64,000 nucleotides of DNA from Candidatus Micrarchaeota archaeon (lineage in GTDB: Archaea > Micrarchaeota > Micrarchaeia > Norongarragalinales > SBBD01), in NCBI GenBank assembly GCA_018819225.1, contig JAHJQN010000005.1, forward strand, positions 35,286 to 99,285, written 5' to 3'. Shown piece after piece: positions 2,935-63,830 of the stretch. The notes beneath the pieces are model-generated. The model did not search any database, was not told where the DNA came from, and saw only the letters and a list, made by a program, of their open reading frames with translations. The number at the start of each line of letters is the position of its first letter. Position 1 is the stretch's first letter. The position numbers were made by a program, and so were the translations under genes.

Positions 2935-4239
2935 TCAAAGCAAATCTTTCGCCACGATGCTCAGCACCTCGACTTCCCTGCGAAATTGGTGGGCGTGACG
3001 TAATGCAATGGCTTGCGCCACACTCGGCGCGAGTTCCTCGCCTTCCCGGAATCCGCGCTTGCGGGCGTACGCCAGAATCTCGTCCGATATGGTTTTTCCT
3101 GAAGACAGCATTTCGCGGAAGGGCTGCGCAAACATCGCTGAACCGTGATCTTTTTGGAAAGAGTATGCGAGCTTATGGAATGCCGTACAATACGCGCGCA
3201 CGCGTGCATCCTCTAATCCGTTCAGAGCCACCGCGGGAAGCAGCGTATTGGTGATATAGGAATGAGGAGGCACCAAGAGCACGTGGCCATCGAACTTGAA
3301 CGGTTTCCGGATGCCGTCGTCGCTGGGACGCACCACAATCTCTTTCGCGTAAATGCGCTTGAGCACGGCGTTCAAGGCCGAAGAGGCGCCTAGCAAGACG
3401 CGCGGATGATTCGCGTCCATGCCGCGTTGTTCAATGGTTCCGAGTTTGTTGATGCGAACGGGACCCCAGAAAAAATTAAAGGGATTCGCGTTGCGGACGG
3501 ATAAGGGCACTTTGCCCATCACCTCCCTAACGTTCGAAATGAATCGTTTTTTTCGGGTAGCCGTTAAATGATTCAAATCCGTCAACGTGGACGCGTAACG
3601 AGGCAAGCGGCCGAATTCCGTCAATTCGTGGTAGACTCCCGCCAAATGCGAATGCTTCAAATCGCGGTATAAGAGCATGCGCGCATCCTTTCCAACATGT
3701 CGTCCTTCATAAAAGGGCGAGGATTGCAGGAAACAACTGACTGCAGGATCCGCGGCAATCAAGAAATTGTATTGCGAGATGACGGTGCGACGCGTCTCAG
3801 GTCCCTTGTAAATGCGCAGTAGCTTATCCTTATACAACATGGCGCCTTTCGGGAGATCGATGTGAAAATGAAAACCGCATACGCGTGACGCATACTGGCG
3901 AAACGCGGGTCCTAATACCGCGTCTTGCACGCGGTACCACGGCTTGTTGACCATGAACGGCTCGGAACGACCGGGGTACGTGCCCAAAGGAAGCAGGTAG
4001 CCATCGCCTTTCAACATTTTCTCCACGCGGTTTACGTGGTAAAATAAATTGCGAATGGAACCCAGGGAACGCGCGTGGGGCATGGAATTGAATTCGAGCA
4101 TGGAGTCCCCGACTTCCATAACAAACGGTTTTCGGGACTTGAAGCGTTTATGAATCCGACGCGCCCCGTTCATGAGGTTTCCGTCATCATCAATCAGGAA
4201 TACTTCGAGTTCGAAACCTACGGTGTGTCGTTTCATCAA
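2935..4239 (-). CDS. Carboxylate-amine ligase, glutamate-cysteine ligase family 2 (YbdK/GCS2-like)
   Basis: N-terminal GFELEVFLID motif typical of GCS2 ligases; 434 aa. Confidence 0.65.
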   Translation of the reverse strand: MMKRHTVGFELEVFLIDDDGNLMNGARRIHKRFKSRKPFVMEVGDSMLEFNSMPHARSLGSIRNLFYHVNRVEKMLKGDGYLLPLGTYPGRSEPFMVNKPWYRVQDAVLGPAFRQYASRVCGFHFHIDLPKGAMLYKDKLLRIYKGPETRRTVISQYNFLIAADPAVSCFLQSSPFYEGRHVGKDARMLLYRDLKHSHLAGVYHELTEFGRLPRYASTLTDLNHLTATRKKRFISNVREVMGKVPLSVRNANPFNFFWGPVRINKLGTIEQRGMDANHPRVLLGASSALNAVLKRIYAKEIVVRPSDDGIRKPFKFDGHVLLVPPHSYITNTLLPAVALNGLEDARVRAYCTAFHKLAYSFQKDHGSAMFAQPFREMLSSGKTISDEILAYARKRGFREGEELAPSVAQAIALRHAHQFRREVEVLSIVAKDLL

Positions 4240-4305
4240 TGCCCCTCTTTTACAAAAATTGCGCGAAGGAGTATAATAAGGGAATCGGCCATCAGAAAAA
4301 AAGAC

Positions 4306-5766
4306 TCATCCTTTGACGACGCCGAGAGGCACCAATCGAGCCACGGGTTTGCTGATTCCCGCCATGTGCACGGCTTTAACGACTTCGTCCACGTCCTTGT
4401 ACGCGCCGCCCGCCTCCTCCGCCAGTGAACGCCAGGAAGTGGCGCGAACCGCCTGCCCTTTTTCCTCCATTTCTTTTTGCAATTGTTCTCCGCGGAAGCT
4501 TCGCAATGCTTGCTTACGGGACATGACCCGCCCGGCTCCATGACACGAACTCCCAAAACTTTCTTTCGCACCAGGAAGGCCGACTAAAACGTAGGAAGCG
4601 GTATTCATGCTTCCGGGAATGATCACGGGTTGGCCGACGTTCCGGTAAGCAGTGGGAATTTCTTTGCGTCCTTTCCAGAACGCACGGGTCGCCCCCTTGC
4701 GGTGGATGCACACTTCCTGCATTTTTCCGTTGACTTCGTGTTCCTCGAATTTGGCGATGTTGTGGCAAACGTCGTACACGAGCTCCATGCCCAAGGACTC
4801 CCACGACTGCTTGAAGACGGATGCAAAGGTTTCGCGGGCCCAATGCGCCATGTAATGGCGATTACAGAATGCATAGTTGATGGCCGCGCGCATTTGTTTC
4901 AAATAATTTTGGGCTTCCGGAGAGGAAACGGGCGCGCAGCATAACTCGGGATCCGGCAAAGAAATGCCGTACTTTTTAGCGGCTTGCAACATGACGCGCA
5001 AGTTGTCGTCGCAAACTTGGTGCCCGAAACCCCGCGAACCCGAGTGAATCATCATGGTAATCTGTCCTTCATGCGTCAAGCCGAACGCCTTCGCGGTTTC
5101 CGCATCATAGATGCGGTCGATTTTCTGCACTTCCGCGAAGTGGTTTCCGCTGCCGAGCGTACCGAACTGGGGTTTGCCGCGCTTGCGCGCCTTATCGGAA
5201 AGCAAGGAAAAATCCGCGCCTTCAAACACGCCGTTTTCCTCGCAATGCTCGGCATCCGCGGGCACCCCAAAACCCTGTTCGATGGGATACTGAACACCGG
5301 CCGTCACCGCCTCCTCAAGTTCTTGTTCCGTTAAGCGGACGCGTCCTTTCGTGCCGACTCCGCACGGAATGTTTTGAAAAAGCCCGTTCACGATTTCCTT
5401 GAGCCTGGGCTTCACATCCTCTTCAGAAAGACTCGTGCGCAGCAAACGCACGCCGCAATTAATGTCGTAACCCACGCCGCCCGGCGAAATCACGCCGTCC
5501 TCCATCGAAAACGCAGCCACGCCTCCAATGGGAAATCCGTATCCTTCATGGCCGTCGGGCATGACTTGAGCGGCCTCTAAAATTCCGGGCAGCTTCGCCA
5601 CATTGGATGCTTGCCAGAGCGTGCGATCCGAATGCAATTTGTTCAGCATTTGAGGCGTGGAATAAACGCGCACGGGAACGCGCATGCCGTCCACTGCAGG
5701 CGCTTCGTATACTCCGTTTCGAATGAGTTTCAAATCCATGAGGTATATCCACCGGTCGCCCATCAT
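4306..5766 (-). CDS. rtcB: RNA-splicing ligase RtcB
   Basis: GSGNHF, HNIAKFEEH, CHGAGR motifs; 486 aa; no intein insertion visible. Confidence 0.9.
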   Translation of the reverse strand: MMGDRWIYLMDLKLIRNGVYEAPAVDGMRVPVRVYSTPQMLNKLHSDRTLWQASNVAKLPGILEAAQVMPDGHEGYGFPIGGVAAFSMEDGVISPGGVGYDINCGVRLLRTSLSEEDVKPRLKEIVNGLFQNIPCGVGTKGRVRLTEQELEEAVTAGVQYPIEQGFGVPADAEHCEENGVFEGADFSLLSDKARKRGKPQFGTLGSGNHFAEVQKIDRIYDAETAKAFGLTHEGQITMMIHSGSRGFGHQVCDDNLRVMLQAAKKYGISLPDPELCCAPVSSPEAQNYLKQMRAAINYAFCNRHYMAHWARETFASVFKQSWESLGMELVYDVCHNIAKFEEHEVNGKMQEVCIHRKGATRAFWKGRKEIPTAYRNVGQPVIIPGSMNTASYVLVGLPGAKESFGSSCHGAGRVMSRKQALRSFRGEQLQKEMEEKGQAVRATSWRSLAEEAGGAYKDVDEVVKAVHMAGISKPVARLVPLGVVKG

Positions 5767-6820: not shown

Positions 6821-6992
6821 GAAGAATACCCAAAGCCCCTACAAATTGCGAATTCCGCAGGGTTGATACTGAATAACGAAAAAATATAAGCATTATTCTG
6901 AATTTCTTCAGAATTATTCTAATTTTCGTCCCGTTTTCCATGAAGATTTACCGGAAATCTTAAAAAAACTATAAAATAAAAAAATTAAAAAT

Positions 6993-7024
6993 ATGAAAAT
7001 GGCACTAAAAAGTGCCAATTTCAT
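6993..7024 (-). terminator. Hairpin plus oligo-T downstream of the secreted-protein gene at 7032-7643
   Basis: 13-bp inverted repeat atgaaaatggcac/gtgccaatttcat followed, in minus orientation, by a T-rich tract. Confidence 0.4.
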
Positions 7025-7031
7025 ACTAAAA

Positions 7032-7643
7032 CTAAGTCAAATCGTACCAAATGTCGTACGCGTTGTAGTTAGGGGTCTTGGCTACAACGATCTCGTAGTT
7101 GATCCGACCGAAGCTGCTAGTAATGAAGTTGCTGAGGTTCGTGCAGAACCCATAGTTCTCCGTTCCCGCACCAGTGGAATCGAAGATGATGGCCGTGCTG
7201 CGCGAGTCCGTTGTGTTTAACACGCGCATGTTCAACGCACTCCCGCACTGTCCGTCGGATGCGGAAGAATCGAAGTGATTCGCGGTCACGTAATATCCCG
7301 TGAGAGAGAAGTTGCCGTCCGTGGTGCTGTTCGTTGAGGCGTTCACGAACGGTTCCGATGGAGTGACGCCGGTCTCAAAGAAGTACAGTACTCCTGAAGA
7401 AACGGGTTTCGTGTACAACACGTTGCCTACGGCGGTATTGTTCCGGACTTGCAGAGTCAAATTTCCGTAGAAACCAACGTACTGCTCCATGCGTCCTGTA
7501 ACGGTCAAGTTGCTGGACGTTCCGTTATCAGTTGGTGCGGCTACGTTCGTGTTATCCGATTGCTGAATGGCAAATACCATGGTCGCAGCAATAGATATTA
7601 AAAACAGAAATACTACGACGAATCTCTTATTTATATTCCTCAT
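7032..7643 (-). CDS. Small secreted N-glycosylation-sequon-rich protein, paralog A of a three-member family
   Basis: Sec-type signal peptide; more than 10 N-x-S/T sequons; 60-75% identical to the ORFs at 45947-46570 and 47403-48005. Confidence 0.7.
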   Translation of the reverse strand: MRNINKRFVVVFLFLISIAATMVFAIQQSDNTNVAAPTDNGTSSNLTVTGRMEQYVGFYGNLTLQVRNNTAVGNVLYTKPVSSGVLYFFETGVTPSEPFVNASTNSTTDGNFSLTGYYVTANHFDSSASDGQCGSALNMRVLNTTDSRSTAIIFDSTGAGTENYGFCTNLSNFITSSFGRINYEIVVAKTPNYNAYDIWYDLT

Positions 7644-9249: not shown

Positions 9250-9280
9250 CGACCTTTTTCAAACAAGGTCGATAAAAAAA
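9250..9280 (-). repeat. tRNA 3'-trailer hairpin motif, copy 1
   Basis: cgacctttttcaaacaaggtcgataaaaaaa; related to the sites at 11085-11112 and 52556-52586. Confidence 0.4.
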
Positions 9281-9300
9281 TCTAGGAGCATTAAAAAAAG

Positions 9301-9420
9301 TGGGGCCGCCGAGATTTGAACTCGGATCGCTGCCACTCCGGCCTTCACGCGCCTTGCAGCTTTTGGCAGAGCGAGGGAAGGTCCCCAAGGCAGTAGGATG
9401 CCAGGTTACCCCACGGCCCC
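9301..9420 (-). tRNA. tRNA-Pro(GGG) with a canonical anticodon-loop intron of about 46 nt
   Basis: Minus strand reads GGGGCCG...CTGCC-TTGGGG-[intron]-GGCAG...CGAGTTCAAATCTCG-GCGGCCCC-A; acceptor, anticodon and T stems all pair. Confidence 0.8.
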
Positions 9421-11047: not shown

Positions 11048-11084
11048 CATTTTATTCACTTTTACAAATATTATTTTTGAATGC

Positions 11085-11112
11085 GACTTTTTGATCGACC
11101 TTTTTTGAAAAA
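11085..11112 (+). repeat. tRNA 3'-trailer hairpin motif, copy 2
   Basis: gactttttgatcgaccttttttgaaaaa; a 24-nt identity with 52558-52581. Confidence 0.4.
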
Positions 11113-11161
11113 CATCATTTTCTTTTGGTGAAGCTTTTCTTTTCGAAAGAAAAGGTTCGTA

Positions 11162-11281
11162 TGCAGGGGCGGGGATTTTCATCGTTTTTCTCGAACGGAA
11201 AAAAACGGTTTTGAACCCCGGCATCCTCTACGGAACAGAGACCTCAACCCTGCGCATTTGACCAGACTCTGCCACCCCTGC
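11162..11281 (-). tRNA. tRNA-Leu(GAG) with a non-canonical intron of about 34 nt in the T-loop
   Basis: Minus strand: GCAGGGG-TG-GCA-GAGTCTGGTCAAA-TGC-G-CAGGG-TTGAGGT-CTCTG-long V arm-CGGGG-TTCAAA[intron]T-CCCCG-CCCCTGC-A; all stems pair once the insertion in the T-loop is removed. Confidence 0.65.
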
Positions 11282-17105: not shown

Positions 17106-18920
17106 CTACTCCATCATTTGCTTGAGTTGCCCCAAATAATCGGAGCGGTCTTGCCGGAACTGTTTGCGGGCATGCGCATCATCGCGTTTTTTGCGGAAGG
17201 AAACGAACATGGCGGCCGCCGCCACAATCGAAACACCGATGATGGCCGCGACCTCCGGTGGAAAACGCGCGATCAACGTGCTCACGGAATCGTCTTCGCG
17301 TTTGCGCACTTGAACGGGCGTGCTTTTCGCATTCAAACCGTCTTCGGTAAACAAACGGAACGTGAACAAGTGCGACCCCGCGCTTCCAACGGGCGGGGTG
17401 ACCCGGAAACCAAACCGCGTAATGCCTCTCGGGAGCAATGGTTTTTGGATTTCCAAGGGCTGTAATTCAAAATCAACGGGCACTTCCAGCGCGGCTTGCA
17501 CGTGCAGCGGTTGAATCCCGGAATAAAACACGTCAACCGCCACTTCCCCTTCTTCCCCCTCGAATAATTCGGGGGCGAACAATCCTTTGACTTCCACGAA
17601 TTCCAAGAGGCGCAACTTTTCCTGCGTGACCGCTACCTGGTCGGTCTGCCAATCCACGTACGTGGAATACGTGGGGAGGACAAGGGGAAGGACGTACGTG
17701 GCGTACGCGATTTCGTTGGGATTCAAATTCAAAAACTCCCATCGAACCTTTAACGGCCGTTCTTGAATGATTTCTCCGGGTTTATCGAGAAAACGAATGT
17801 CTTGCGAGGTCACATCCATGAGAGTGGGAATGGATTCGTAGACGTTGACGACGGGTATGGCTTTCGTGCCCAGATTGCGCACGTTGAGCGCGACCGTGGT
17901 TTCGCGCGCGAGCCGATCAATGCGGATGTGTCGCAATACGACGGGGTAGGGGTATTCGCGCGGAAAGCTCTTGACGCGCAATACCATGTATTCAATCGTA
18001 GGGCGCGTGCTATGAACCTCTAATTTCAGTAAATAATCGCCGGCCAACGCGTAATTCGGAACGGATAAACCGAAATTGATGATGCGTTCTTCTCCGGGGC
18101 GTAACGTCGTTTCCTTGGGCTGGAACGATACCCAGGATTCGGAAGTCCCGGTCACGAGCAAGCGAATGGTTTTCTCGGTTCCGCCGTCGTTGCGAATCGT
18201 AAAGGATTCGAATGCGCTCGTGCCCGCCAAGAGCTCTCTGAGAACCGTGTGGCGCAAGAACTTGATGTCCCCTTCAACGGGAATGATTTCATCCGGCAGG
18301 GGTTTCGGGGGCGTGAAATTATCGGTGGGCGGAATGAAAAATCCTCCGGACGAGCCACCCCCTCCCGGGGATTGCGGAGGAGGAGTCACCGGCGGATTCA
18401 CGACGGAAAAGCATTCAGAAAACACTTCGCTTTGGTTCGCGTAATCGTCGTAATACGCGGTGGCGTTCGCGCAGTATATGCCGATGGGAAGCGTGCCCGT
18501 GCTCCAGCTCTTGATGAGAATCACTTGCGAAAAACGCGAGATGAGCGTCGGCGAGTAATTGAACGAGTCCACGAGGTCATCCGTCGTGTTGAAGATGAGG
18601 ACTTCCGCGGTCGCGTTCGCTTGAACGGTTCCGTTGTTGTAAAGCGTGAGAACGAAGTCGCCGCTGGCCCCTGAATAAATGGGATCGGGAGCTACGGTCA
18701 GGTTTTGGATCGTGACGTTCGTGTAATTAGGCAAGTCGGACCGGAACCACGTCAGCGTGTCCGCGTAATCGGCGTGAGCGAGACTACTCAATAAGAAAAG
18801 AATAAAAAATAAAAAAAAGGTTTCATGGCTCACGTGACCTCGAAGAACATCGTGTACCATGTTTGTCCGATGCTTCCGCCTCCCGTGCCGATGTAGTCCA
18901 GTTTGTACTTGTAGAACCAT
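17106..18920 (-). CDS. Cell-surface protein with C-terminal TM anchor
   Basis: Signal peptide (likely start near 18860, FFLFFILFLLSSLAHA); many N-x-S/T sequons; PPVTPPPQSPGGGG linker; C-terminal TM plus basic tail. Confidence 0.6.
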   Translation of the reverse strand: MVLQVQTGLHRHGRRKHRTNMVHDVLRGHVSHETFFLFFILFLLSSLAHADYADTLTWFRSDLPNYTNVTIQNLTVAPDPIYSGASGDFVLTLYNNGTVQANATAEVLIFNTTDDLVDSFNYSPTLISRFSQVILIKSWSTGTLPIGIYCANATAYYDDYANQSEVFSECFSVVNPPVTPPPQSPGGGGSSGGFFIPPTDNFTPPKPLPDEIIPVEGDIKFLRHTVLRELLAGTSAFESFTIRNDGGTEKTIRLLVTGTSESWVSFQPKETTLRPGEERIINFGLSVPNYALAGDYLLKLEVHSTRPTIEYMVLRVKSFPREYPYPVVLRHIRIDRLARETTVALNVRNLGTKAIPVVNVYESIPTLMDVTSQDIRFLDKPGEIIQERPLKVRWEFLNLNPNEIAYATYVLPLVLPTYSTYVDWQTDQVAVTQEKLRLLEFVEVKGLFAPELFEGEEGEVAVDVFYSGIQPLHVQAALEVPVDFELQPLEIQKPLLPRGITRFGFRVTPPVGSAGSHLFTFRLFTEDGLNAKSTPVQVRKREDDSVSTLIARFPPEVAAIIGVSIVAAAAMFVSFRKKRDDAHARKQFRQDRSDYLGQLKQMME

Positions 18921-19789
18921 TCATCGTTCTTCGCCCCGGACGGCGGCGTGATGTTGATTCCGACGATGTATCGGCCGGGTTTCACGTCCTTAGCCCTTAC
19001 TTTAACCGTAATCTTTTGGGTCCAACCCGATTGGAAGACGGGAAATGCCGGTTCCAGCAAGACGTCTACCGGATCCACTGAAACGTCAAAGTACTTTTTG
19101 GTTTCCTCGGGGTCGACGTCGACGGTACGCGTGCCATCCGCGAACTCGCTTAACTTGAGCTCGCCGTGCGGCGGGTATTCAACCGAGAAGGCCATGCCCT
19201 GATAGGTCTGCACGAGCCACGTGGAATGGATGAAGAAATGCGTTTCGTATTCGTCGTTTCGTCTGGATAGCACGATGACTTCGCTCGGGAACGTTCCGTA
19301 ACCGACTGCGGCCCAGCGGTCCGTCGGAGGATACTGGTACAATTTGCACCCGCTTTCATCGAACATGGGATACCATTCGGGCTGTTTCCAATAATTTTCC
19401 CCGAAATAGTTGGTGTCCGAAATTTTTCCGAGGTGGAACAACAGCTTTTGGACGTAGAAATCTTCAGGGAACGGAGGGACCTCGGCATACACTTGGGGAG
19501 GCAAGTCGCATCGCCGCTTGGCGATCTCGAACGGATCTTCCTGGTATTGCTGCAGGCGAACCATCAAGTCCGGGTACTTGGTCCAGAACGGATCCTCGGT
19601 CGGCGTCGGGGTTGTGGCCACTGTTATGGCCGTTGGAATGATTGTAGGCACCGGAGCCGGAGGAGCAAACGCGTCCTGCAACGGTCCCAAGAAATACAGT
19701 GCGAGCACCGCGATCACGGCCAATCCAATCCACACTTCCTTGCCCATTTTCTTTCCGTGATGCGACGTGCTATGAGGCTTCTTCTTCAT
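18830..19789 (-). CDS. N-terminally membrane-anchored extracellular protein
   Basis: His/Lys-rich N-terminus, one TM segment, PT-rich linker, then a 240-aa globular domain. Confidence 0.6.
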   Translation of the reverse strand: MKKKPHSTSHHGKKMGKEVWIGLAVIAVLALYFLGPLQDAFAPPAPVPTIIPTAITVATTPTPTEDPFWTKYPDLMVRLQQYQEDPFEIAKRRCDLPPQVYAEVPPFPEDFYVQKLLFHLGKISDTNYFGENYWKQPEWYPMFDESGCKLYQYPPTDRWAAVGYGTFPSEVIVLSRRNDEYETHFFIHSTWLVQTYQGMAFSVEYPPHGELKLSEFADGTRTVDVDPEETKKYFDVSVDPVDVLLEPAFPVFQSGWTQKITVKVRAKDVKPGRYIVGINITPPSGAKNDEWFYKYKLDYIGTGGGSIGQTWYTMFFEVT

Positions 19790-19809
19790 GATCTTTCCCC
19801 CTCTTATGC

Positions 19810-20418
19810 TTAGTTCGCGTTCGTGCTGTTGTGCGTGATCAAACGCTGTTCCACGAGACCGGATACGGACGTGAAGTTCGCGTACAACGTCACGTTAATC
19901 GAACAACATGCGGGTGAAGCCGTGGTATTGAGTTCCTGGAAAATCATTGCTTCCATGGAATTGTTCAACGGAATCTCTGGACCAATAGTTACCGCGTTGT
20001 TACCCACTCCACTTGCAGAACTGTTCACGCCCACCGTAATACCCGATGGAAGCGATGAATTGAATATGAGCGTCATGCTGAGATTCACGTTTCCGGCATT
20101 CGTGTACTGGAAAATAGGTACCGCTGCTCCGGCTTGACACGAACCGCCGAATGCGGTGGTCAAACACGGTTCGACTCGCGTGCACGTTCCGGTGACGCAG
20201 GTAAAGTTAATGTCTGCAGTTGCGGGGCCGGGATCGGATGCACTCGAAGCATTCGCTTCACCGGCTCCCAACGGTAATGTAATCGTGAAACCCGTGTCCA
20301 CCGGGACATTGAAGATGACGGCGGTATTCGCCCATTCCGCTAACGGCATGGCAGCCAACGCAATAAATGCGGCAACAAAAACAATCAAGCGAAAGTGTTT
20401 CCAAACCATTGCGTCCAC
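19810..20418 (-). CDS. Secreted Cys-containing glycoprotein
   Basis: Signal peptide; 8 Cys; multiple sequons. Confidence 0.55.
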   Translation of the reverse strand: MDAMVWKHFRLIVFVAAFIALAAMPLAEWANTAVIFNVPVDTGFTITLPLGAGEANASSASDPGPATADINFTCVTGTCTRVEPCLTTAFGGSCQAGAAVPIFQYTNAGNVNLSMTLIFNSSLPSGITVGVNSSASGVGNNAVTIGPEIPLNNSMEAMIFQELNTTASPACCSINVTLYANFTSVSGLVEQRLITHNSTNAN

Positions 20419-45946: not shown

Positions 45947-46570
45947 GTGATTGAGTTGCGTCCCACCCGCATACTCGCATTAGGTTTAATAGTCGCTGGC
46001 GTCATGTCGGTAATTGTCTACGCGGCAGTCGAACAATCGGATAACACGAATGTTGCGGTGCCAACAAATAACGGAACTTCCACCAACCTATCGGTTGCCG
46101 GACGAATGCAGCAATACGTTGGCTTCTACGGAAACATGAGCTACCAGGTCCGTAATGATACGACGGTAGGCAACATTCTGTACCAGAAAACCGTTACTCA
46201 AGGAGTGCTCTATTTCTTCAAAAATGGCGCTACTCCAACGGAACCGTTCGTGAACGCCTCGACGAACAGCACCACGGATACCAATTTCTCGCTCACGGGG
46301 TATTATGTGACCGGAAACCATTTCGATACGAACGCGTCTGATGGACAATGCGCGTCCAATCTGGATCTGAAGGTATTGAATACCACAGATGGCCGAAGCA
46401 CGGCCATTCTATTTGATTCATCAACAGCTGGCACGGAGAATTACCTCTTCTGCACCAACATCAGTTCGTTCACGTCAACAAACGGATTCGGTACCATCAA
46501 CTACGAGATCGTGGTGGCCAAGACGCCAACGTATATGGCGTATGACATCTGGCACGACTTAACCACCTGA
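45947..46570 (+). CDS. Small secreted sequon-rich protein, paralog B (GTG start)
   Basis: Signal peptide; shared VEQSDNTNVA(A/V)PT(D/N)NGTS mature N-terminus and conserved core with paralogs A and C. Confidence 0.7.
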   Translation: MIELRPTRILALGLIVAGVMSVIVYAAVEQSDNTNVAVPTNNGTSTNLSVAGRMQQYVGFYGNMSYQVRNDTTVGNILYQKTVTQGVLYFFKNGATPTEPFVNASTNSTTDTNFSLTGYYVTGNHFDTNASDGQCASNLDLKVLNTTDGRSTAILFDSSTAGTENYLFCTNISSFTSTNGFGTINYEIVVAKTPTYMAYDIWHDLTT

Positions 46571-47402: not shown

Positions 47403-48005
47403 ATGAAAAACAATCGAGTATTTTTCGTCGCCATATTACTAATAACCGGATCATTTATGGTTTATGCGGTTCAACAGTCCGATAATACGAATGTAGCCGC
47501 ACCAACTGATAACGGAACGTCCAGCAACTTGACCGTTACAGGACGCATGGAGCAGTACGTTGGATTCTACGGCAATTTGACGATGCAAGTCCGGAACAAT
47601 ACCGCCGTAGGCAACGTGTTGTACACGAAACCCGTTTCTCAAGGCGTACTGTACTTCTTTGAGACCGGCGTCACTCCATCGGAACCGTTCGTGAACGCCT
47701 CGACGAACAGCACCACGGACGGCAACTTCTCTCTCACGGGATATTACGTGACCGCGAATCACTTCGATTCTTCCGCATCCGACGGACAGTGCGGGAGTGC
47801 GTTGAACATGCGCGTGTTAAACACAACGGACTCGCGCAGTACGGCTATTATCTATGATTCAACGGGCGCGGGAACGGAGAAGTACGGATTCTGCACGAAC
47901 CTCAGCAACTTCGCCACTACCAGCTTCGGTCGGATCAACTACCAAGTCGTTGTGGCAAAAACAGCAGGCTACAATGCATATGACATATGGTTCGATTTGA
48001 CATAG
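47403..48005 (+). CDS. Small secreted sequon-rich protein, paralog C
   Basis: About 90% identical to paralog A over the mature region. Confidence 0.7.
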   Translation: MKNNRVFFVAILLITGSFMVYAVQQSDNTNVAAPTDNGTSSNLTVTGRMEQYVGFYGNLTMQVRNNTAVGNVLYTKPVSQGVLYFFETGVTPSEPFVNASTNSTTDGNFSLTGYYVTANHFDSSASDGQCGSALNMRVLNTTDSRSTAIIYDSTGAGTEKYGFCTNLSNFATTSFGRINYQVVVAKTAGYNAYDIWFDLT

Positions 48006-52474: not shown

Positions 52475-52547
52475 GGGGCTGTGGGGTAACCTGGTATCCT
52501 GCTAGCTTCGGGAGCTAGTGATCTGAGTTCAAATCTCAGCAGCCCCA
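52475..52547 (+). tRNA. tRNA-Pro(CGG), intron-less
   Basis: GGGGCTG acceptor; anticodon stem CTAGC/GCTAG with loop TTCGGGA; T-arm CTGAG-TTCAAAT-CTCAG; CCA not encoded. Confidence 0.85.
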
Positions 52548-52555
52548 CTCTCACG

Positions 52556-52586
52556 ATTTTTGATCGACCTTTTTGAAAAGGTCGGT
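52556..52586 (+). repeat. tRNA 3'-trailer hairpin motif, copy 3
   Basis: gatttttgatcgacctttttgaaaaggtcgg (cgacctttt/aaaaggtcg stem); followed at 52592-52611 by a 19-nt repeat of the tRNA 3' end. Confidence 0.45.
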
Positions 52587-52656
52587 TGCCAAAACTCAGC
52601 AGCCCCACTACTTCTTTGGTCGACCCTCACAATATAAAAAAGCAGTATGAATTACG

Positions 52657-53667
52657 ATGGATATGGTTCGGAAATCTATTTGGATTTTTCTCTTGTTTTC
52701 AATCGCAGTTTTTGGATCCGTCAATGCCATCAACGAAACGTGTTCAAATTTGCATGGCACCCCCAACCCCGCAGAAAGCGCTCAATCCGTCGCCATCTCT
52801 TTCTTTTTTACAGGAAACGCTACGGGAACCATAACCTGCAACGGTGCTATAGACTCGAATCCACCGGTGAGCTGCTACGGTAATTCCTCTTCATGTACCG
52901 CGAACTGTGTTTGGGGGTCCGGAGGCACGTATCCAGTGGAAGCGGATTATGGATCGGCTGCGTGCAATCCATTTAATCAAACCATTAACGCGGAGGCAAC
53001 GCCGACACCGACTCCCACTCCTTCCCCCACGCCTTGGCCCACTTGTTCGAACATGAATGGAACCGTTTGTGCATTAGAAGAAATTTGTCCTGCAGATCAA
53101 TGGCTTAACGCATCGGATTCCGAGCGTTGTTGCGCGGTGGATTGTGAAGCGAATGCGACGCCAACCCCTTCCCCTACCGTGACGCCGACGCCTACGCCTC
53201 CAGGGAACGCAACCGAGTCCCCGACACCCTCGCTTACGCCCACTCCCACACTAACGCCGATTCCAACGAACACGCCGACACCGAGTCCGACGAATACGCC
53301 GGTGCCCACCGAACCCCATGTCGTTCCTTCGACGGCCACACCGTCAAGCCCAGTGCCTCCAGCTTTAGAGGAAGAAATTGAGGAATTGAGGGATCAAGTG
53401 GATGCGTTACCGGAAGGCAACGATAAGCAAGAGCTGTTCATCCTGCTTAATGAAGCGGAAGAAAACATGCAAGCCCAACAAACCAGCAAGGCGCGCGCCC
53501 TGATTCTTCAAGCGCGACTAAAAATTGCGGAAGCCGGTACGTACAAAACGGATCGCTCGACACCCATTTCATATGCGGAAATTGCGTTTGTCGGCGTGCT
53601 CGTGGCAGGAGTCGTGTGGGCGGTATCCGGGCTCATTATCCGCCGAGGAAAAATCAAACAAGCCTAG
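52657..53667 (+). CDS. Surface protein: signal peptide, Cys-rich N-domain, one copy of the 6-Cys DQWLNASD module, PT-rich stalk, C-terminal TM anchor
   Basis: Module at 53044-53148, nucleotide-level similar to the two copies inside the 1519-aa protein; TPTPSPT linkers; C-terminal AFVGVLVAGVVWAVSGLII plus RRGKIKQA. Confidence 0.7.
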   Translation: MDMVRKSIWIFLLFSIAVFGSVNAINETCSNLHGTPNPAESAQSVAISFFFTGNATGTITCNGAIDSNPPVSCYGNSSSCTANCVWGSGGTYPVEADYGSAACNPFNQTINAEATPTPTPTPSPTPWPTCSNMNGTVCALEEICPADQWLNASDSERCCAVDCEANATPTPSPTVTPTPTPPGNATESPTPSLTPTPTLTPIPTNTPTPSPTNTPVPTEPHVVPSTATPSSPVPPALEEEIEELRDQVDALPEGNDKQELFILLNEAEENMQAQQTSKARALILQARLKIAEAGTYKTDRSTPISYAEIAFVGVLVAGVVWAVSGLIIRRGKIKQA

Positions 53668-61240: not shown

Positions 61241-62203
61241 TTTTAAGCTAAATACTTAACCTGCGCGAATTTGCGATTTGCGTAGCTGGTTGCTGTAGTC
61301 CCGGCGAATCGAAGCTCGTGCTATGACCGATTCCTTGAGCGGTCCCTTGATCTATGATAGGGCGTATTACGCTCCATTCCACTACAGCGGCCGATGGGAA
61401 TGTGAGCAATCGTTTTGAATCACGATTCACGTTCGACGGACGCGGACCTCAACGCCAAAATAAATCGTTTAGTTCTTTGCGACTCGTAATTCGCAATCAG
61501 TTAAATTCAGTACGGATTGCACACGCGCTCTTCCGAGAGGGAGAGTGGCGTGTAACACCAGTTGATCCTGCTGGAGGATATTGCTATCAGAATTCGACTA
61601 AGCCATGCAAGTCAGTGTTACCACCTGGTAACACGGCGAACGGCTCAGTAACGCGTACTTAACTTACCCTAGGCAGGCGAATAACTTCGGGAAACTGAAG
61701 GGAATACGCCGTAGGAAACAATTTCTGGAACGAAGTGTTTCTTAAAGTGCTCCGAATTGTAGGAGTTACGGCCTAGGATGGGAGTGCGTCTGATTAGGCT
61801 GTTGGTGGGGTAAAGGCCCACCAAACCGATAATCAGTAGGAGCTATGGGAGTAGAAGCTCCGAGATGGGCACTGAGACAAGGGCCCAAGCCCTACGGGGT
61901 GCAGCAGGCGCGAAATTTCCGCAATGCGCGCAAGCGTGACGGGGGAATTCTGAGTGCTTCTCTTACGAGAAGCTTTTGCTTAGCTTGAATCGCTAGGCGA
62001 ATAAGGAGTGGGTAAATCCTGTGCCAGCCGCCGCGGTAATACAGGTAGTCCAAGTGATATCCACGAATACTGAGTCTAAAGCGCTCGTAGCGGGTTCGGC
62101 AAGTTCTCTGTGAAATCTTCAAGCTCAACTTGAAGGCGTGCAGGGAATACTACCAGACTTGGGAGTGGGGGAGGCCAAGGGTACTTTAGGGGGAGGAGTA
62201 AAA

Positions 62204-62260
62204 CGACCTTTTCTTTCAAAAAGAAAAGCTCGACCAAAAGAAATCGACATGTCGTACTCA
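62204..62260 (+). repeat. 57-nt palindromic insertion inside 16S (between GGAGTAAAA and TCCTGTAATCC); a copy of the element next to tRNA-Leu
   Basis: cgaccttttctttcaaaaagaaaagctcgaccaaaagaaatcga... versus 11113-11160 (rc) acgaaccttttctttcgaaaagaaaagcttcaccaaaagaaaatga... Confidence 0.5.
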
Positions 62261-62477
62261 AAATCCTGTAATCCTTAAAGGACCTTCAGTAGCGAAGGCG
62301 CTTGGCCAAAACACGTCCGACCGTGAGGAGCGAAGGCCAGGGGAGCAAATCGGATTAGATACCCGAGTAGTCCTGGCAGTAAATGATGCAGACTAGGCAT
62401 TGCAATGGTTTCGAACTGTTGCAGGGCCGTAGGGAAGCTGATAAGTCTGCCACTTGGGGAGTACGGTCGCAAGACTT

Positions 62478-62518
<41 letters not shown>

Positions 62519-63061
62519 TGCTGCGGTTCAATTGGACTCAACGCCGGGAAACTCACCAGGAGAGACAGCAGAATGAAGCTCAGGCTAAAGACCTTAGCTG
62601 ACAAGCTGAGAGGTGTTGCATGGCCAGCGTCAGTTCGTGCCGTGAGGTGTCAAGTTAAGTCTTGCAACGAACGAGATCTTCATCCACAGTTGCCAGTTTC
62701 GCGGTAACGCGGAGCGCACTCTGTGGAAACTGCCTGCGTTAAGTAGGAGGAAGGAGAAGGCGACGCTAGGTCTGTATGGCCCGAATCTCCTGGGCCACAC
62801 GTGGCATACAATGGCGGAGACAATGGGTTCCGACGCCGAAAGGCGAAGGTAATCTCCGAAACTCCGTCTAAGTCCGGATTGGGGGCTGAAACTCGTCCCC
62901 ATGAAGCTGGAATCCCTAGTAATCGCGTGTCATCATCGCGCGGTGAATATGTCCCCGCTCCTTGCACACACCGCCCGTCAAGTCAACCAAGCGAGGCTTT
63001 AGTGAGGCTTGGTCTTCGGATCAAGTCGAGCTAGAACTTTGTAAGGTGGATTAAGTCGTAA

Positions 63062-63830
63062 GAACGTTGCGACCTCGGATCTGTGAGGATTTGAGAAAAA
63101 ATCTGCTATATGCTGGAAACCCCGAGCATCTCAGGCTACCATCGGAAACGACGCTTCGGAATGAATATCATTCTCGAAGAAATTCAGTTGGTGAAAATGT
63201 TTTGAGTGCGGGCAATCAGCAGGGAAGTCGGCGCGAAAGCGCTTGACCCCTCAGAGACTACACGCAGACTTCTATAGTGCAAGAGAACATGAAGGCATAT
63301 CTCCTTGGCGCGCTACACGATGGCTCCAATCACGGTAACACGTACCGAATCGTCCAAAAAGAAGAAGAATACGTCCGCTGGATTGCGGATGAACTTCATC
63401 AAATGGGCATTTCGGCATGGGTTTATCGGGAAGGAGCTGAACGACATTTATTCGTCGTCGAGTTCTCGAAAAGTCGGTTATCGGAAATCAAGATCAATAG
63501 TCTTGAAGAGAAAACTGAATACATTCGAGGATACTTCGATGCCGAAGGTAGCGTACCATTGAAATCGGGAGCCAGAATGTACATTTATTTCTGCCAAAAA
63601 GACCGAAAGGATCTGGAAGAAGTAAAAACATTCTTGGAAGAACTTGGAATCGTTTGTGGAAAAACCCACAATCCAACGTTCAAAGAACCTGATTATTGGA
63701 GATTCTTCATTGGATGTAAATCCTACAAAGCATTTGCATCTAAAATTGGTTCTCGCCATCCTCGAAAGAGGAAAGTACTCGAGAAGATGATATAGTCCAT
63801 GCCGCGCAGCGATGCGTGGAAGAACATGAA
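63062..63830 (+). mobile_element. 16S rRNA intron near the 3' end (after AAGTCGTAA), carrying a homing endonuclease ORF
   Basis: The 16S consensus AAGTCGTAACAAGGTAGCCGTAGGGGAACC is restored when 63062-63830 is removed. Confidence 0.8.
63277..63795 (+). CDS. LAGLIDADG-family homing endonuclease (double-motif, monomeric type)
   Basis: YLLGALHDGS (motif 1) and IRGYFDAEGS (motif 2) roughly 95 aa apart; 172 aa. Confidence 0.85.
   Translation: MQENMKAYLLGALHDGSNHGNTYRIVQKEEEYVRWIADELHQMGISAWVYREGAERHLFVVEFSKSRLSEIKINSLEEKTEYIRGYFDAEGSVPLKSGARMYIYFCQKDRKDLEEVKTFLEELGIVCGKTHNPTFKEPDYWRFFIGCKSYKAFASKIGSRHPRKRKVLEKMI

Follow-up and report, generated by a model that had tools for sequence, protein, structure and literature searches.

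The 3' exon of the tRNA-Pro(CGG) gene in this Micrarchaeota genome is present twice, around an intron-like hairpin, and the structure lies at a hot spot for tRNA introns. Our preferred reading, to which we give a probability of roughly 0.45, is that a small insertion or duplication at T-loop position 59/60 doubled this exon and left the repeat as its footprint. We favor it because the spacer between the copies belongs to a hairpin family resident in the host, because the repeat boundary falls at 59/60, and because duplication and intron alternate at a tRNA-Leu gene of the lineage. The repeat and its extent, the hairpin family, the recurrence of such duplications in Micrarchaeota and the contrast among tRNA-Leu genes are direct observations. 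Throughout, the window is the whole 64,000-nt stretch of DNA that was analyzed; together with flanks of 8.5 kb and 6.8 kb it provides 79 kb of a metagenomic contig whose 709 kb set a lower bound on the size of the genome. The window contains an archaeal 16S rRNA gene, and its ribosomal protein S9, annotated as Candidatus Micrarchaeota, has nearest relatives that are ~74% identical, some of them labelled Norongarragalinales. L-numbers denote comparison loci from relatives and from other archaea.

The tRNA-Pro(CGG) gene (52475..52547, plus strand, its end falling at 52547/8) was called by ARAGORN and matched Rfam RF00005 at 60.6 bits. Its sequence is that of an intact, intron-free tRNA, with the acceptor strands GGGGCTG/CAGCCCC and the T-arm CTGAG-TTCAAAT-CTCAG. 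The upstream repeat copy, R1 (CAAATCTCAGCAGCCCCACT, 52530..52549, plus strand), comprises tRNA positions 56-73 and two trailer bases (CT), and so holds part of the T-loop, the 3' strand of the T-stem, the 3' acceptor strand and the discriminator. The downstream copy, R2 (CAAAACTCAGCAGCCCCACT, 52590..52609), lies on the same strand with a start-to-start distance of 60 nt and is identical at 19 of 20 positions, the lone mismatch being T-loop position 60, which is T in R1 and A in R2. The copies share an exact 15-mer core, CTCAGCAGCCCCACT, at 52535-52549 and 52595-52609. Allowing up to two mismatches, 0.02 matches to this 15-mer are expected by chance in the 64-kb window, and none of 100 shuffles contained three; the third match in the window (9299-9313, minus strand) falls at the 3' end of another proline tRNA gene, tRNA-Pro(GGG). 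The first-pass annotation had described a 19-nt direct repeat of the tRNA 3' end around a 45-nt spacer with a perfect 9-bp hairpin. The repeat and the hairpin are real, but the repeat is better given as 20 nt with one mismatch or as 15 nt exact, its coordinates were 1-2 nt off, and 45 nt is the distance between the 15-mers whereas 40 nt separate the 20-mers.

That 40-nt spacer (CTCACGATTTTTGATCGACCTTTTTGAAAAGGTCGGTTGC, 52550..52589, plus strand, delimited from the sequence) contains two T5 tracts, at 52557-52561 and 52570-52574, and a hairpin motif that we call M. At the core of M is the perfect palindrome CGACCTTTT-TG-AAAAGGTCG (52565..52584, plus strand), whose 9-nt arms (52565-52573 and 52576-52584) are 100% complementary across a 2-nt gap; as RNA it is predicted to form 11 pairs, including G-U, at -13.3 kcal/mol. 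It is one of just 13 perfect hairpins of at least 8 bp in the 64 kb, and it is internal to the spacer, with 15 nt on its R1 side and 5 nt on its R2 side. Archaeal terminators are oligo-T tracts, whereas bacterial ones consist of a G+C-rich hairpin followed by a T-run. The two T5 tracts begin 9 and 22 nt past the tRNA gene, and a scan with a bacterial-type terminator consensus returned 0 sites. Just past R2 stands TTTGGTCGACC (52615..52625, plus strand), a faint echo of the M left arm TTTGATCGACC (10/11 in a local alignment, a score equaled by 30 of 2,000 shuffles), which may be the remnant of an older M copy. It is followed by a TATA-box-like element, AATATAAAAAA (52631..52641, plus strand), recognized from its sequence and located 16 nt 5' of the next gene's ATG, so that R2, lying upstream of it, is probably outside that gene's mRNA. 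The gene itself (52657..53667, plus strand), the first downstream, lies outside the repeat structure; its translation is a 336-aa Thr/Pro-rich secreted or anchored protein that has no match in Pfam, PHROGs or NCBIfam and carries no mobile-element signal. Another assembly, Logan SRR6514730, shows no base difference over 14.5 kb and therefore does not count as independent evidence for the structure. The locus does not qualify as a CRISPR-like array, having only two repeat copies where three or more are needed and no cas domains.

Where does such a spacer come from? A closely matching sequence follows the paralogous tRNA-Pro(GGG) gene (9301..9420, minus strand; Rfam 43.5 bits, intron-aware ARAGORN and a motif scan), which default ARAGORN overlooks and which has a 47-nt canonical intron with a strict bulge-helix-bulge motif. 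The 3' end of this gene, CTCGGCGGCCCCA, is followed by CT, and its trailer contains a copy of M, TTTTTTATCGACCTTGTTTGAAAAAGGTCG (9250..9279, minus strand). In the two tRNA-Pro trailers M takes the form TTTTT[G/T]ATCGACCTT(G)TTTG(A)AAAAGGTCG; the R1-R2 spacer and the tRNA-Pro(GGG) trailer agree in 28 of 30 aligned columns, the alignment needing two 1-nt gaps, and none of 2,000 shuffles did as well. A third gene, tRNA-Leu(GAG) (11162..11281, minus strand), was identified from its sequence and by alignment with its orthologs in L184, L185, L189 and L192; both tRNA detectors miss it because a 34-nt insert (11176-11209) splits its T-loop at position 59/60. Its trailer (11068..11160, minus strand) includes a half copy of M (11088-11110), and the first ~42 nt of that trailer resemble a 61-nt insert (62203..62263, plus strand; Rfam alignment and similarity) that sits in a conserved hairpin loop of the 16S rRNA gene, with 38 of 42 aligned columns matching. 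This 16S insert, 61 nt where the Rfam model expects 1, carries the hairpin CTTTTCTTTCAAAAAGAAAAG and the CGACC motifs of the M family, and is probably a mini-intron. The arms CGACCTTTT and AAAAGGTCG are common to M, the tRNA-Leu trailer and the 16S insert.

Each of the three stand-alone tRNA genes in the 79 kb is followed by M on its own strand, the copy behind tRNA-Leu being partial, and across this organism and its relatives members of the M family are found either in tRNA trailers or as non-canonical introns (T-loop 59/60, D-loop, 16S rRNA). The similarity within the family is partly that of low-complexity T and A runs, and two of the matches are robust against shuffling, that of the tRNA-Leu trailer with the 16S insert and that of one tRNA-Pro trailer with the other. 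On our preferred reading the R1-R2 spacer is a member of a genome-specific family of T-run/A-run hairpins and not the remains of a virus or plasmid, and the earlier suggestion that it might be what is left of an excised element is backed by nothing other than the repeat. We also considered whether M is an ancient trailer kept since the two proline paralogs split, and rejected this: in L184, whose tRNA-Pro(GGG) is the nearest ortholog available, the trailer lacks M and has a hairpin of different sequence, and M is better conserved between the paralogs (28/30) than the tRNA bodies themselves (~85% in a hand comparison). The L184 trailer thus points to a recent spread of M within the window genome rather than to inheritance with the paralogs. 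M could also be a terminator whose copies at paralogous genes have been homogenized by gene conversion, which counts against an insertion.

The tRNA-Pro(CGG) duplication is one of several. Among 204 non-redundant tRNAs surveyed for exact 14-mer recurrences within 500 nt, the same-strand recurrences were all of terminal tRNA segments, except for one inside the intron of an ARAGORN call (L061); the sole opposite-strand recurrence traces to a 3,050-nt L143 call that is spurious. Five 3' ends are repeated downstream (the window tRNA-Pro, L192 tRNA-Gly, L091 tRNA-Asp, L132 tRNA-Met and L142 tRNA-Ser) and one 5' end is repeated upstream (L091 tRNA-Thr). With further genes that were identified by hand included, 3' duplications affect 4 of ~45 Micrarchaeota tRNAs versus 2 of 166 from other archaea. 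The duplicated segments in the other cases measure 15 or more, 17, 22, 22 and ~40 nt, and the spacers of the six surveyed duplications range from ~40 to 135 nt, none reaching kilobase scale in loci that are mostly only 8-20 kb long. The L132 and L142 spacers are homologous although they sit at different tRNAs, each flanked by a duplication of that tRNA's own 3' end, and the non-paralogous tRNA-Asp and tRNA-Thr genes of L091 have trailers that open with a common 34-nt hairpin motif; the L192 tRNA-Gly and L091 tRNA-Asp spacers are unrelated in sequence to M. R2 as the stump of a decayed tandem tRNA paralog was rejected on the same survey, since only same-strand terminal segments recur, and the fact that no internal fragment of a genuine tRNA does so argues against random decay of tandem paralogs. 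For background we used 120 loci from a scan of archaeal contigs with a tRNA-Pro T-arm/acceptor pattern, which are mostly unrelated to the window because the pattern is conserved across Archaea; among these 120 tRNA-Pro genes of other archaeal lineages, none has a 13-mer of its 3' end repeated within 200 nt and none has the R1-R2 spacer hairpin.

The position of the duplication links it to introns. The R1/R2 boundary and the sole mismatch flank T-loop position 59/60, a recognized intron position. In Ca. Micrarchaeum (ARMAN-2), 56% of tRNA genes are disrupted, introns occur at 59/60 with tRNA-Pro(GGG) among the carriers, and the epsilon-2 splicing endonuclease tolerates relaxed motifs (PMC3239211). 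Our locus resembles those introns in its lineage, in the tRNA position and in having a small hairpin-bearing insert. It differs in that the gene is uninterrupted, R1 completing the tRNA with a full 3' exon ahead of the spacer, so that no splicing is needed at tRNA-Pro(CGG), and in that a strict splice motif was not found. The strict bulge-helix-bulge scan recovers the canonical introns, our positive control, and misses all of the non-canonical inserts as well as R1-spacer-R2.

Relatives provide the corresponding interrupted genes. The tRNA-Pro(GGG) genes of L185-L188 have two interruptions, one at the canonical site and another of ~92 nt that follows TTCAAA in the T-loop; this T-loop insert aligns where R1 and the spacer sit, and the 3' exon behind it aligns with R2. 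The L185 T-loop insert is in turn homologous to the D-loop insert of the neighboring tRNA-Gly gene, a case of homologous inserts at different positions of different tRNAs that is like the 'intron transposition' reviewed for Thermoproteales (PMC4090602). The most direct comparison comes from tRNA-Leu(GAG), where one orthologous gene alternates between intron and duplication, in likeness to non-canonical introns: a T-loop insert together with a single 3' end is found in the orthologs of the window, L184, L185 and L189, whereas in L192 the T-arm is uninterrupted and a block of ~40 nt, made up of the T-arm, the 3' end and 16 nt of trailer, is present in two copies ~128 nt apart.

We therefore favor, at the strength given above, a single insertion or duplication at T-loop position 59/60 that would have produced R1-spacer-R2 in one step. 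R1, which keeps the gene intact, would be the working 3' end and would be used rather than R2, which would be a displaced or relic 3' exon, and the two T5 tracts of the spacer hairpin would probably end transcription. The duplicated 3' end and the T-loop intron may then be alternative states of one gene in the lineage: if the downstream copy were lost, the trailer would keep a hairpin, and if the upstream copy were lost, a T-loop intron would result, with the direction of change being either intron gain or intron loss. Several points count against an insertion of this kind: the duplications elsewhere sit at genes other than tRNA-Pro(CGG), two of them (L192 tRNA-Gly and L091 tRNA-Asp) with spacers unlike M, the strict scan found no splice motif at R1-spacer-R2, and no archaeal bulge-helix-bulge intron is known, to our knowledge, to duplicate an exon when it inserts. 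The literature that we searched held no description of exon duplication as part of intron gain or loss.

A more far-reaching proposal, which we advance tentatively as possible though doubtful, is that the locus is an intermediate through which non-canonical tRNA introns arise or disappear by way of a small mobile hairpin element. Such an element would enter structured-RNA genes at the DNA level and duplicate the adjoining exon, which is the 3' one at the T-loop and the 5' one at the D-loop. If the outer copy were later lost, a trailer or leader hairpin would remain; if the inner copy were lost, the result would be an intron at 59/60 or in the D-loop.

The first-pass annotation had instead proposed a scar of site-specific integration, and this is the strongest rival to a small insertion, although we consider it rather unlikely. 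Archaeal tRNA genes are the targets of elements with SSV- and pNOB8-type tyrosine integrases, and genomic islands are catalogued in Islander. On this account a tyrosine-integrase virus, plasmid or other element recombined at the T-loop-to-3'-end segment of tRNA-Pro(CGG), the element would have brought in R1 as attL along with a terminator hairpin, R2 would be attR, and deletions would have left 40 nt between them. The geometry fits what has been described for attL and attR of tRNA-targeting elements (PMC4383910, PMC6563490): the 3' segment of the tRNA is repeated downstream on the same strand with a block of identity from the loop to the 3' end, as expected if integration regenerates the tRNA gene and displaces a fragment that marks the other border (PMC4383910). 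A repeat of 15-20 bp is within the archaeal range, where att sites can measure 8-26 bp, the Thaumarchaeota median being 17 bp; most targets are 3'-distal and fewer are 5'-distal, and sites may be reused in tandem (PMC6563490). Sites of attB type in the T-loop are also on record (PMC1762012).

Set against this fit, the locus departs from integrative elements in having a 40-nt gap, no integrase, no element genes and no foreign composition, and in carrying between its copies a hairpin that is common to tRNA trailers, introns and the 16S insert of the host. None of the six duplications has a kilobase-scale spacer; DPANN genomes may delete DNA fast, yet independent decay to less than 150 nt at six genes is unlikely. 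Domain searches with Pfam, PHROGs and NCBIfam on nearly all sizeable window ORFs, complemented by gene tables for the ~15 kb of flank, found no tyrosine recombinase, integrase, Cas1, casposase, PolB, transposase or phage-like protein in the 79 kb, and the window genes are housekeeping genes and lineage-specific ORFans. The 79 kb contain no third copy of the exact 15-mer, the flanks adding neither repeat copies nor a recombinase. Scans of viral contigs with the repeat and the hairpin gave 0-4 matches, all tRNA-free and in unrelated sequence, which we judged to be chance; blastn of the repeat, spacer and hairpin against phages and plasmids gave no match, and in none of the three collections was there a meaningful attP-like sequence. 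The 3.4 kb downstream of R2 had been called accessory-like, but their G+C content of 0.50-0.54 is close to the window mean of 0.51, they have no mobile-element matches, and they consist of lineage-specific ORFans with no boundary marking them as an island. What had been anticipated of an integration event is therefore borne out in part: the duplication is not due to chance and its geometry is insertion-like, so that the footprint of an insertion is present, but the recombinase expected nearby, the third repeat copy bounding an island and the element DNA itself did not turn up in the 79 kb, and no mobile element or island is identifiable there.

Comparison with an empty site could be attempted only within a small sample of relatives, none of which yielded an ortholog of the tRNA-Pro(CGG) locus. 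Scanning metagenomes with a lineage-specific tRNA pattern of 40 nt gave no matches, and among homologs of the adjacent Na+/solute symporter no relative had a tRNA-Pro gene beside it; the nearest homologs of this symporter are 57-65% identical, and the conserved neighborhood is limited to the symporter-ThiD pair. A separate candidate, an island behind tRNA-Pro(GGG) suggested by a dip in G+C to 0.43-0.44 at 6-8 kb, was rejected because the 3' end of that gene is not repeated there; the low-G+C stretch encodes RtcB, an AsnC-type regulator, transaldolase and ORFans.

Integration and intron gain have been joined before. In Caldiarchaeum subterraneum, disruption of tRNA genes was modelled as the result of mobile-element integration, from which both tRNA fragments and an extra intron are derived (Sugahara et al. 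2012, PMC3293823). That case is like ours in that a tRNA fragment stands in direct repeat with an intact gene, and there the arrangement is tied to a non-canonical intron gained within a population; it is unlike ours in that the insert is 1.8 kb long and encodes a recombinase and the fragment is a 5' one, whereas here 40 gene-free nucleotides accompany a 3' fragment. The sole population-level model of intron gain thus invokes a recombinase-bearing element (PMC3293823). Since that model combines the two, we would regard an eroded scar and a small insertion as not mutually exclusive.

Replication error, in the form of a 60-bp tandem duplication of the tRNA 3' end and trailer by slippage at CAAA with later divergence of the second trailer, is improbable. 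The spacing is exactly 60 nt and CAAA starts both copies, the faint echo of the M left arm follows R2, and the duplicated block of the L192 tRNA-Leu gene takes in 16 nt of trailer, all of which such an error would accommodate. What makes it less likely is that R2 matches R1 at 19/20 positions, whereas the 40 nt after it are essentially unalignable apart from 11 nt, and neutral decay would not preserve the tRNA-derived part alone. Slippage also leaves unexplained why only terminal tRNA segments are duplicated and why the L132 and L142 spacers are homologous at different tRNAs.

We find it more improbable still that a staggered-cut integrase of the casposase/Cas1 type inserted a short DNA next to the T-loop with a 15-bp target-site duplication. 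The precedent is close, for the casposon enzyme of Aciduliprofundum boonei duplicates 15 bp at a tRNA-Pro 3' end, treats the adjacent T-loop segment as an upstream 'leader' and is able to insert short duplexes (PMC5137440), and the exact repeat at our locus is likewise 15 bp and starts right after the T-loop. However, the A. boonei duplication overlaps the tRNA by 5 bp (PMC5137440) compared with 13 bp here, our insert measures 45 nt between the 15-mers, no terminal inverted repeats abut the copies, the palindrome being internal, and neither Cas1 nor PolB is encoded in the 79 kb. The overlap in the precedent and the lack here of terminal inverted repeats and of Cas1 make this type of duplication less likely, and the duplication lengths found elsewhere vary where a fixed 15 bp would be expected.

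Least probable, by a small step, is a functional role, either by read-through to R2 and splicing of R1 and the spacer (60 nt) as a T-loop intron, yielding an alternative A60 tRNA, or with the hairpin and R2 serving as a processing or termination signal; constrained folding with R2 as the 3' exon pairs the T-stem and acceptor perfectly around the loop TTCAAAA, the endonuclease of the lineage accepts relaxed motifs (PMC3239211), and T-runs occur inside genuine inserts (for example T7 in the tRNA-Leu insert), so the T5 tracts need not stop transcription, yet R1 already completes the tRNA and makes splicing unnecessary, the scan found no strict bulge-helix-bulge motif, the GCCA before R2 cannot pair with the T-loop UUCA as the 3' end UGAA of the tRNA-Leu insert does (hand analysis), and the duplications at other genes vary in length and sequence.

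The locus bears on how non-canonical introns are gained and lost in archaeal tRNA genes. Three of the four interruptions of tRNA and rRNA genes in the window are invisible to standard detectors, so that tRNA inventories of DPANN archaea are probably incomplete. Base 60, T in R1 and A in R2, is a natural marker of which copy is used in the mature tRNA. Should exon duplication and non-canonical introns turn out not to be linked, the locus would be a commonplace integration scar that has eroded heavily. What makes it valuable is the possible link between the two in DPANN archaea, which, if true, would offer a concrete and testable series of intermediates. And if the locus is indeed an intermediate in the birth or death of such introns, it would supply a DNA-level mechanism for the 'transposition' of archaeal tRNA introns, and Micrarchaeota would be a lineage that shows all of its stages side by side.

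Duplications of tRNA ends around short spacers occur at several other Micrarchaeota loci. The 1.3-Mb Micrarchaeia contig L192 carries two: the last 17 nt of tRNA-Gly(TCC) (6981-7160) recur 93 nt downstream, past a G/C hairpin, and a block of ~40 nt comprising the T-arm, 3' end and trailer of tRNA-Leu(GAG) (4926-5093) is duplicated about 128 nt downstream. In L091, a contig from a Micrarchaeota MAG, a common 34-nt hairpin motif (TATGGGGCYTTRTGCCCCATGTTGGGATTCTAGT) opens the trailers of both tRNA-Asp and tRNA-Thr (regions 1-170 and 4049-4260, minus strand); tRNA-Asp has a second copy of its 3' end at the very edge of the contig, 79 nt downstream, and the first 18 nt of tRNA-Thr are found again 136 nt upstream.

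Beyond Micrarchaeota, two archaeal metagenome contigs of high GC content (68-69%), L132 and L142, repeat the last 22 nt of tRNA-Met (18041-18260) and tRNA-Ser (19780-20024), respectively, 117-134 nt downstream, and their spacers hold a significant common core (GGATTTGA[A/G]CCC...) resembling an antisense T-arm. A T-run/A-run hairpin (AACCTTTTAGAAAAAGGTTGATCAAAA) is common to the trailers of two tRNA-Ser(GGA) paralogs in L078, a Methanobacteriaceae locus, which shows that tRNA genes outside Micrarchaeota can also be followed by such hairpins.

Elsewhere in the window, two paralogous secreted proteins of ~200 aa each (45947-46570 and 47403-48005, both plus strand), sharing 134 identical residues and matching no family, are separated by an AsnC-type regulator.

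Inserts within RNA genes form a second group of observations. The window tRNA-Leu(GAG) (11162-11281, minus strand), detected by neither ARAGORN nor Rfam, is interrupted by 34 nt (11176-11209) at T-loop position 59/60, and its orthologs in L184, L185, L189 and L192 have D-loop and/or T-loop inserts of variable length. The adjoining L18e ORF reaches too far at its 5' end; its true start lies near 11050. The sequence directly after this tRNA-Leu matches, in 38 of 42 aligned columns, a 61-nt insert in the 16S rRNA gene (62203-62263, plus strand), which occupies a conserved hairpin loop where the model expects 1 nt. On hand inspection the 16S insert itself shows a near bulge-helix-bulge motif, and it is probably a mini-intron.

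Overlapping the 16S 3' end is a Group I intron-like match (63050-63819, plus strand; 48.3 bits, below the Rfam gathering score of 50), inside which lies a LAGLIDADG endonuclease ORF (63277-63795). The LAGLIDADG ORF at 7022-7528 of L196, a locus that takes in DNA beyond the window, is apparently this same gene; a second such ORF (L196 3911-4510) sits in the rRNA operon just outside the window. The rRNA spacer holds tRNA-Ala(TGC).

The window tRNA-Pro(GGG) (9301-9420, minus strand), placed after the L18e-L13-S9-RpoN genes and not called by default ARAGORN or Rfam scans of the whole window, contains a 47-nt canonical intron with a perfect bulge-helix-bulge motif. Its counterpart in L185 (7311-7553) has two inserts, the canonical one and one of ~92 nt at T-loop position 59/60, and tRNA-Gly(TCC) of the same contig (about 7718-7890) has a D-loop insert; both arrangements are also found in L186-L188. 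The T-loop and D-loop inserts of L185 are mutually homologous, which suggests that a single insert family occupies different positions in different tRNAs.
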